This document shows, piece by piece, positions 4,438 through 4,582 of a DNA stretch of 64,000 bases. A program made the position numbers and the translations under genes. Each line of letters starts with the position of its first letter. Position 1 is the stretch's first letter. The DNA lies in NCBI GenBank assembly GCA_964624475.1, contig CAZUYC010000001.1, positions 18,031 through 82,030 on the forward strand. The letters are read 5' to 3'. This DNA comes from an uncultured Spirochaetales bacterium. GTDB taxonomy: Bacteria > Myxococcota_A > UBA9160 > SMWR01. The notes under the pieces were generated by a model. The model was not told where the DNA came from. It saw only the letters and a program-made list of their open reading frames with translations, and searched no databases.

Positions 4438-4582
4438 CACTCCGCTCGCCTGGGCCGAGCTCCACAGGAGCTCCGGCCCGCTGCGCGCCCGCTGCGCGGG
4501 CTTGCACTACGCACGGGCGAGGTCCACGCTCCCGTGCTCCGCTCGCCTGCGGCTCGCTGCGCGCCCGCTGCGCGGGCTTGCA
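4438..4582. repeat. intergenic repeat element, locus 1 (long unit + short unit)
   Basis: The 50-nt block CACTCCGCTCGCCTGGGCCGAGCTCCACAGGAGCTCCGGCCCGCTGCGCG is identical to 21294-21343. Internal palindrome at 4457-4473. Two GCCCGC-tgc-GCGGGC hairpins at 4487-4501 and 4563-4577. Confidence 0.75.

Follow-up and report, generated by a model that had tools for sequence, protein, structure and literature searches.

A family of REP-like hairpin repeats between the genes of uncultured Myxococcota

The intergenic repeats in the 64-kb stretch of DNA analyzed here (the window) are probably copies of a non-autonomous interspersed repeat of a REP/MITE-like kind, which expanded within a high-GC clade of uncultured Myxococcota, with a proposed spread at a single-stranded DNA stage. 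They form a new REP-like repeat family, the mechanism of which we infer below. A literature search for the core sequences and for Myxococcota REP or RAYT elements found nothing relevant, and this large hairpin-repeat family of uncultured Myxococcota is apparently undescribed. A preliminary description of the same DNA had read the repeats as a REP-like, structured-RNA or protein-binding element rather than drift, a judgement supported by the stem-pairing checks and by the checks for coding sequences and insertion sequences (IS) reported here.

Units of the window and extent of the family

Each unit consists, in this order, of block A (CTCCGCTCGCC), slot 1, block B (GGCTCGCTGCGCG), slot 2, and block C (CTTGC), with the slots between A and B and between B and C each occupied by a hairpin of the minimal 3-bp form or by a palindromic insert of greater length; the minimal unit, CTCCGCTCGCC-TnC-GGCTCGCTGCGCG-CTTCG-CTTGC, is 37 nt long. 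Five units are found at three intergenic loci of the window. Locus 1, between the GHL10 stop (4583) and the queA start (4430), has a long unit on the plus strand as written from CTCC to TTGC (4440 to 4505) that matches the layout pattern, scores 36.1 bits with the covariance model for its 3′ part, and shares 93% identity with positions 21294-21368. Its slot 1 contains a 21-nt insert and forms an extended hairpin that folds with one bulge (4452 to 4479, plus strand; GGGCCGAGCTCC-aca-GGAGCTCCGGCCC, core palindrome at 4457-4473), and its slot-2 hairpin (4487 to 4501, plus strand), GCCCGC-tgc-GCGGGC, reads C(GCA)G on the minus strand, which is the structured, purine-rich strand of this unit and the sense strand of both GHL10 and queA. 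The second unit of locus 1 is a short one of 45 nt (4537 to 4581, plus strand; pattern match, 64.8 bits, E value of 5e-12), with a minimal hairpin 1 at 4541-4557 (GCTCGCC-tgc-GGCTCGC) and hairpin 2 at 4563-4577. Locus 2, between the convergent stops at 21243 and 21426, is a composite element of 162 nt (21251 to 21412, plus strand) that comprises an A/T-containing hairpin module (GCGATTT..AAATCGC), a long unit (21296-21361, hairpin 2 at 21343-21357), a spacer, and a degenerate short unit (21377-21412). Locus 3, between the NAGidase stop (42189) and the phosphatase start (42376), carries a short 45-nt unit on the minus strand (42304 to 42348; pattern match, 62.8 bits, hairpin 2 at 42308-42322), so that its purine-rich structured strand lies on the plus strand, the sense strand of both flanking genes.

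The sequences and coordinates that the preliminary description gave for its three loci, their stems, and the palindrome at 4457-4473 all proved correct on re-reading, and its three-locus family stands, enlarged by the degenerate fifth unit at locus 2. The block of 50 identical nucleotides that it had reported for loci 1 and 2, followed by related sequence, is the beginning of a 75-nt match (4438-4512 versus 21294-21368, 93% identity), and its inverted short unit at locus 3 was recovered by the repeat search as the inverted pair 4530-4581 and 42304-42355. The same search recovered the direct copies at 4471-4506, 4547-4582, and 21327-21362. The window also contains a 174-nt direct repeat with 72% identity (35323-35496 versus 37431-37604), whose copies lie 2.1 kb apart. 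As had been claimed, every unit of the window is intergenic; a match at 50254 and a covariance model hit at 20289-20334 lie inside coding sequences and were dismissed as chance.

Chance similarity of GC-rich intergenic sequence, i.e., drift, could appear attractive in a genome of 73% GC, given that the 11-mer CTCCGCTCGCC by itself is not over-represented in the window and that the fold energies of single units are unexceptional compared with shuffled sequences. However, the enrichment is limited to the full layout, CTCCGCTCGCC-N(2-31)-CGCTGCGCG-N(6-30)-TTGC, which has 4 matches in the window and none in 100 dinucleotide shuffles, so that zero matches would be expected by chance. The covariance model scores the five units at 35 to 65 bits, against a window background of at most 23.5 bits. 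With more than 150 units in 94 sources and strong covariation (see below), drift has practically no chance of being the right explanation and is already refuted; the repeat itself is confirmed as real.

Beyond the window, a scan of GTDB representative genomes detected at least 93 loci, of which, among those listed, all but ∼10 come from metagenome-assembled genomes (MAGs) titled Myxococcota, Deltaproteobacteria, Myxococcales, or high-GC “uncultured Spirochaetales”; the family is carried by at least 24 assemblies with one of the first three titles. Carriers include the complete genome CP070734.1 and the 3-Mb contig CAVQUJ010000010.1. Hits in Jatrophihabitans, Paracoccaceae, Acidobacteriota, Verrucomicrobiota, and Nannocystis were without the block B context and were treated as chance matches, and a sequence from Rhodospirillaceae (L024) may be a distant relative. 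Several high-GC MAGs titled “uncultured Spirochaetales” (among others L002, L008, L009, and L011; CAYPSI01, CAYTJA01, CAZZFT01, and similar) carry many units, and the Tgt protein of L034 shares 49% identity with that of the window; the “uncultured Spirochaetales” title of these high-GC MAGs looks doubtful. A census of 725 kb of sequence, allowing up to 2 substitutions in total over the three blocks, yielded 155 units (130 of them distinct) against 1 in the reversed-sequence control; a looser pattern with up to five substitutions (2+2+1 over the three blocks) had given 69 control hits and was tightened for that reason. As the census was anchored on the conserved blocks, their conservation is partly built into it. 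A scan for the 21-nt insert found 21 further copies of the long variant of the window in soil metagenomes, each in a different context.

At 73.4% GC, lists of open reading frames (ORFs) in the window are unreliable, and a gene caller based on whole-ORF GC3 missed genes, since wrong frames stay open; a sliding frame-signal method was used instead. The preliminary description had placed queA in the ORF 3373..4440; this ORF is off-frame, an artefact of the high GC content, and its translation is Arg-rich and gives no Pfam hit. Codon-position GC puts the real queA at 3402 to 4430 on the minus strand, with a GTG start at 4430 that is confirmed by a 100% identical database protein of 342 aa; the reading frame itself is open from 5930 down to 3402. 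The ribosome-binding site and the first 12 nt of queA (4419 to 4436, minus strand, where it reads GGGAGAGTGAACCTCGCC) are duplicated at 4516-4533, and this 18-nt repeat is part of a 97-nt tandem duplication of unit and gene start at locus 1 (4419-4461 versus 4516-4558, 81% identity). The duplicated start creates a six-codon mini-ORF, GTG GAC CTC GCC CGT GCG TAG (4507 to 4527, minus strand), which, judging from the sequence, is a by-product of the duplication and a putative ORF only. The same pattern of local duplication taking in a neighboring gene start is seen in L009, where an inverted pair of units flanks a TetR gene and others.

Architecture of the unit and its structured strand

Hairpin 1, read on the purine-rich strand, has the form 5′-G-CGAG-CC-GNA-GG-CGAG-C-3′, i.e., a CGAG block, G:C pairs, and a C(GNA)G triloop. 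On the written strand, the common form CGCTC-GCC-nnn-GGC-TCGCTGC was counted 103 times and the swapped form GGC..GCC 17 times, in many MAGs, against 2 occurrences of the mixed form GCC..GCC, leaving aside singletons and chance matches. This swap fixes the triloop register; the alternative reading of TNCG as a UNCG tetraloop was rejected because the swap from GCC/GGC to GGC/GCC fits the triloop register only. The loop is TNC in 105 of 121 cases, which is GNA on the complement, and all four bases occur at N. Beyond the G:C pairs, the arms continue as GCTC and CTCG and are nearly invariant: on the written strand, they would bring C·T and T·C mismatches face to face, whereas on the complement 5′-CGAG-3′ faces 5′-CGAG-3′, as in tandem sheared G·A pairs. 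In L020, both of these mismatches have been turned into Watson-Crick pairs. The preliminary description was right in calling the repeat structured, its hairpins being confirmed, but the structure sits on the complement of the strand it had written, as indicated by the GNA loops and the CGAG/CGAG block on the former and the mismatches on the latter. Read from these features, the structured strand is GCAAGC-hairpin 2-GCGCAGCGAGCC-GNA-GGCGAGCGGAG.

C(GNA)G triloops, the GCGAAGC mini-hairpin, and the CGAG tandem sheared G·A block are all unusually stable DNA motifs (PMC3201870, PMC13037366, PMC10085684). At the sequence level, the units belong to this class of GNA-triloop and CGAG-block DNA hairpins: in the minimal unit, GCGAAGC stands verbatim on the purine-rich strand, and CC-GNA-GG and CGAG/CGAG occur in exactly the arrangement described in those studies. 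The motifs of the literature are structural ones, whereas the repeat found here is a family of genetic elements, and the literature search returned no description of a genome-wide bacterial repeat built on DNA mini-hairpins or CGAG blocks. Nearest-neighbor folding, by which single units are unexceptional compared with shuffles, is blind to the GNA and CGAG motifs.

Hairpin 2, a G/C palindrome of 3 to ∼10 bp, varies in sequence and length from copy to copy while pairing is kept. This property, already noted for the copies of the window in the preliminary description, holds genome-wide. In 22 distinct 45-nt units, 98.3% of the slot-2 cells are paired (slid-partner controls, only 20 to 50%), and five pairs have changed on both sides, by G:C to C:G flips; the covariation score is 0.336 compared with 0.082 in shuffles, and 0 of 500 shuffles reach it. 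Among distinct slot-2 inserts of 9 to 27 nt, 45 of 75 are perfect palindromes, against 1.1% of shuffles, and these comprise 21 different perfect stems with loops of 3 or 4 nt, nearly all of 3 nt. The 21 long units tell the two parts of the sequence apart: their left part of ∼50 nt is near-identical, with no more than 1 or 2 substitutions even in the 14 pattern-free bases after the slot-1 hairpin, and the hairpin-2 stem is GGCCGC, GCCCGC, GGCGGC, GCGCC, GCGC, or minimal.

Such compensatory changes do not by themselves imply selection on an RNA. Among the non-Watson-Crick cells, G·T (10 cases) is no commoner than A·C (12 cases), so that there is no wobble excess, and template switching within a palindrome can give paired double changes in a single step. 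Template switching is a documented source of paired changes, of hairpin creation and maintenance, and of loop inversion (PMC8794818, PMC8604942). In L027 and L063, TTC and GAA loops are found on identical stems.

Gain, loss, and genomic context

A search with QueA homologues identified six syntenic relatives with the gene order SLT, GHL10, queA, tgt, two of which (L094 and L095) share 84 to 88% DNA identity with the window. The GHL10-queA junction is without a unit in five of them, with the two genes overlapping by 11 to 14 nt in L117 to L120 and lying 3 nt apart in L095. In L094, a single forward unit follows directly after the TAG stop codon, and in the window, two reverse units start one base after the TGA. 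The units of L094 and of the window must go back to two independent insertions at the same junction. The gene caller extends QueA of L094 by 20 N-terminal residues (362 aa in total; 4001-5089), reading through the unit from an ATG in its left module (CGATGAA), which shows that such units can distort annotation. L094 is also the only one of the syntenic relatives in which the tgt stop codon is followed immediately by a half unit. Between tgt and the gene that follows it (2172-2243 of the window, minus strand), the spacer keeps a leader, CGCTCAAGG .. CCGATCCC .. CACGGGAGGGGTG, that is also present in L094, L095, and L117 to L119, whose few bases directly behind the tgt stop have given way to hairpins that differ from genome to genome. 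At the site of the L094 half unit, the window has CTCGGCTGCGGCTAG (2232-2246; CCGCAGCCGAG on the minus strand), which resembles the core of hairpin 1 in 11 of 12 positions and may be a relic or a chance look-alike.

Further examples come from other comparisons. L014 has two units where the orthologous site of L053 is a 7-nt spacer. L097 has another copy of the 162-nt composite of locus 2 (BLAST, 94% identity over 154 nt) between unrelated flanks; in both, the homology starts at GTTCTCGA, seven bases after a TAG, and stops at CTTGC. Internally, the two copies differ in one major respect, slot 2 of the short unit, which is minimal in the window and in L097 an 11-nt palindrome. Insertion polymorphism between related genomes is thus directly visible, and, on the evidence of these sequences, the repeat family is mobile, coming and going between close relatives. 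Four comparisons of filled with empty sites revealed no consistent target-site duplication. The units have no terminal inverted repeats, their ends, CTCCGCTCGCC and GCTTGC, being non-complementary.

The genes that flank units and arrays are ordinary housekeeping genes. Relative to the written orientation of the unit, the flanking genes are arranged as (−,−) in 36 cases, (+,−) in 24, (+,+) in 21, and (−,+) in 13, so that all kinds of intergenic regions are used, with a mild excess of 3′ ends and of the purine-rich strand as the sense strand. Approximately 40% of the genes pointing into a unit stop within 15 nt of it; for the GCAAG end, the distance is −1 to +3 nt in 20 of 62 inward-pointing genes, and the G of the unit itself often completes the stop codon (TA|GCAAGC). 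All but one of the 110 clusters have a single orientation, the exception being mixed, and the 26 multi-unit clusters are direct tandem arrays with array-specific linkers. In a low-power test, the orientation of the units was unrelated to local GC skew (15 versus 18). The units are not coding repeats, as their lengths (37, 41, 43, 45, 47 nt, and so on) are not divisible by three, preserve no reading frame, and come in both orientations. The absence of a conserved frame asserted in the preliminary description is thereby borne out, and the check for fragments of coding sequences or known IS elements found no frame kept and no annotated feature under the plasmid or phage matches.

Relatives on plasmids, alternative readings, and significance

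Relatives also occur outside the Myxococcota; the scores given for them are those of a covariance model built from the 45-nt units. A Collinsella aerofaciens plasmid (NZ_OY725718.1, ∼19300-19490; L122, 298-488) carries four tandem full-length relatives, the best of which scores 55.5 bits (E value of 7e-10), within 1 kb of non-coding DNA that directly follows the 3′ end of a parA-copG (ribbon-helix-helix) operon; hairpin 1 has there exchanged its outer pair from C:G to G:C, with the tandem G·A kept. This array could be the centromere or the single-strand origin of that plasmid. Partial units are found on plasmids of Rhizobiaceae and on small Mob plasmids (L121, 1501-1560; L124, 300-360; L123, 300-335; L136, 1240-1400): on plasmids of Shinella, Sinorhizobium, and Rhizobium, the partial unit lies in non-coding DNA and consists of block A, hairpin 1, and block B (30 to 37 bits), followed by a different long hairpin, and small MobV/MOBQ plasmids of Escherichia coli and Pseudomonas juntendi have the right half of the unit. 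Two IMG/VR contigs with 48 to 55% GC scored 30 to 36 bits (L131, 6226-6290; L129, 7527-7625); in these contigs, GC-rich islands with the hairpin-1 core and further C(GNA)G hairpins are embedded in AT-rich non-coding DNA. A match in “Bacteriophage sp.” MT835797 was rejected as a look-alike hairpin rather than a unit.

The favored explanation is a mobile REP/MITE-like repeat. As the comparisons above show, units are inserted and lost between relatives in intergenic DNA, typically 0 to 3 nt behind a stop codon and in either orientation. Local duplication produces the direct tandem arrays and can take neighboring gene starts along, and units also travel within larger composites. Spread would proceed via a single-stranded DNA stage at which very stable hairpins form, the folded hairpins being recognized by a putative trans-acting enzyme. 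Two processes together would keep hairpin 2 perfect: selection acting on the fold, and intrastrand template switching, through which a change in one arm is copied into its partner. Predicted side effects on the host would include a hairpin at mRNA 3′ ends, the uncoupling of overlapping genes, and the supply of a GGAG or a start codon to the downstream gene. Several observations speak against this explanation: a weak test for a mobilizing enzyme found none in 725 kb (see below), the units have neither terminal inverted repeats nor a consistent target-site duplication, the high conservation of the blocks across species and in the plasmid relatives could mean that a host or plasmid function, and not a transposase, holds the blocks, and the closeness to stop codons and the orientation excess would also fit an RNA-level role.

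The rivals that remain are, in this order, a role at the RNA level, a duplex protein-binding site, and a plasmid-type priming signal. It is possible, if unlikely, that the units are cis-acting structured RNAs, serving as stabilizers of mRNA 3′ ends, as terminators without a U-tract, or as regulators close to the site of translation termination. Functions of this kind are reported for E. coli REPs within 15 nt of stop codons (work of Liang, Rudd, and Deutscher from 2015), and such a role would account for units abutting stop codons, for convergent contexts outnumbering divergent ones (24 to 13), for the purine-rich strand being the sense strand in 36 versus 21 co-directional contexts, for the other, unrelated hairpins at the same spot behind tgt in the relatives, and for the strong covariation. 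It is at odds with the frequency of both orientations, even at a single junction (window versus L094), with the thirteen clusters between divergent genes, and with the parity of G·T and A·C noted above. C:G-closed GNA triloops and CGAG blocks are hallmarks of DNA stability; there are no terminator-like sites at 4300-4700, the units ending with CTTGC on one strand and CGGAG on the other without a U/T run; and no family of Rfam 15 matches the window (best weak match, asX3, 11.5 bits against a cut-off of 40). The rapid gain and loss also argues against a required regulatory site.

A binding site in double-stranded DNA, at which a nucleoid-associated or centromere-type protein would read direct GCTCGC repeats one helical turn apart, is quite improbable. 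Every unit does contain GCTCGC twice, 11 nt apart, and direct tandem arrays occur. Type Ib centromeres are often located just downstream of parA-copG operons, the position of the Collinsella four-unit array. Yet the concerted swap from GCC..GGC to GGC..GCC and the double change in L020 are predicted by intrastrand pairing and not by a direct-repeat site, slot 2 conserves pairing alone and no sequence, and no associated protein gene is found near the chromosomal copies. We give a still smaller chance to a plasmid-derived signal for single-strand initiation (priming) or for exclusion of SSB, analogous to the G4-type and IncQ ssiA sites (in which a hairpin stands between a 5′ tail and a 3′ tail that bears the start triplet) and secondarily amplified on Myxococcota chromosomes. 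The analogy draws on GCGAAGC/GNA-type mini-hairpins at the priming sites of phage G4 and ssiA, with poor SSB binding (PMC13037366), on the layout of ssiA, where a 5′ tail that is bound specifically precedes a hairpin and a start triplet on the 3′ side (PMC8567376), on the invariant CTG between the two hairpins of the units, and on their relatives on conjugative, mobilizable, and small plasmids and viral contigs. It is an analogy of architecture; ssiA and ssiB are stated to be unique to IncQ plasmids (PMC8567376), and the hundreds of chromosomal copies in both orientations, unrelated to GC skew in the low-power test above, speak against a priming signal. A bolder and rather improbable extension would see in the units a cross-phylum class of single-stranded DNA signals, with conserved tails, a mini-hairpin of free sequence, and a CGAG-block hairpin, common to plasmids of Actinomycetota and Proteobacteria and to viral contigs. 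A dedicated single-strand-specific enzyme (HUH-type or primase-like) would copy them behind stop codons, regenerating the palindromic hairpin 2 in each round, and the Myxococcota would represent the runaway expansion of a plasmid-borne functional site.

Among known repeats, the closest parallels to the mobile repeat favored here are the REP/BIME and REPIN-RAYT systems of Enterobacteria and Pseudomonas (PMC3116915, PMC3337134). The units resemble these in being short, GC-rich, hairpin-forming, extragenic, non-coding, non-autonomous, and present in many copies, often directly behind stop codons, in being gained and lost between relatives, and in being thought to be handled as single-stranded hairpins. 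The differences are that a conserved GT[AG]G is lacking at the foot of the hairpin (the flanks have no conserved CTAC/GTAG, and CTAC follows only the long unit of locus 1), that arrays are direct tandems rather than inverted doublets (1 mixed cluster of 110), and that the flanks and the mismatch-bearing hairpin 1 are conserved and the second stem is hypervariable, whereas in REPs the stem itself is conserved. No RAYT or other Y1/HUH match was found in the 725 kb by tblastn with an approximate IS200 TnpA query, which is a weak test. The label “REP-like” of the preliminary description is therefore apt for a short extragenic palindromic repeat in many copies and does not extend to REP or REPIN in the strict sense.

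The SMAG repeats of Stenotrophomonas maltophilia, reportedly (Rocco et al., 2010) a very large family of small palindromes with a GTAG signature and a few discrete stem subfamilies related by compensatory changes, are similar in family size, palindrome length, and stem changes, but the stems described here differ in both length and sequence between nearly all copies. Pneumococcal BOX elements and rhizobial RIMEs are mosaics of modules that can be present, absent, or repeated and form stable secondary structures between genes; the units share this modularity and structure, but not the sequence, their modularity consisting of two hairpin slots with palindromic inserts plus lineage-specific flank modules. 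Mycobacterial MIRUs are said (Supply et al., 1997) to be direct tandem units of 40 to 100 bp within operons, in one orientation, with small ORFs overlapping neighboring stop and start codons. Direct tandem intergenic units are seen here too, some arrays having ATGA overlaps (L025) and the L094 unit being read through into QueA; unlike MIRUs, the units take both orientations (36 versus 21 co-directional) and have lengths that are not multiples of 3. Insertion polymorphism is shared with MITEs, and terminal inverted repeats matching an IS are not.

For genome annotation, it matters that overlapping genes are split by units, that a GGAG or a start codon can come from a unit, and that gene callers read through units. 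The family could also serve as a marker in typing strains and in recognizing where these MAGs have assembly or rearrangement breakpoints. Near-identical copies that differ in one stem provide a natural test of template switching against selection for pairing. REP-type repeats have been worked out almost only in Gammaproteobacteria, and the present family is an abundant one, of different design, in an uncultured branch of the Myxococcota. Its signature points to the folding of one DNA strand and may thereby offer a handle for finding a new mobilizing enzyme.
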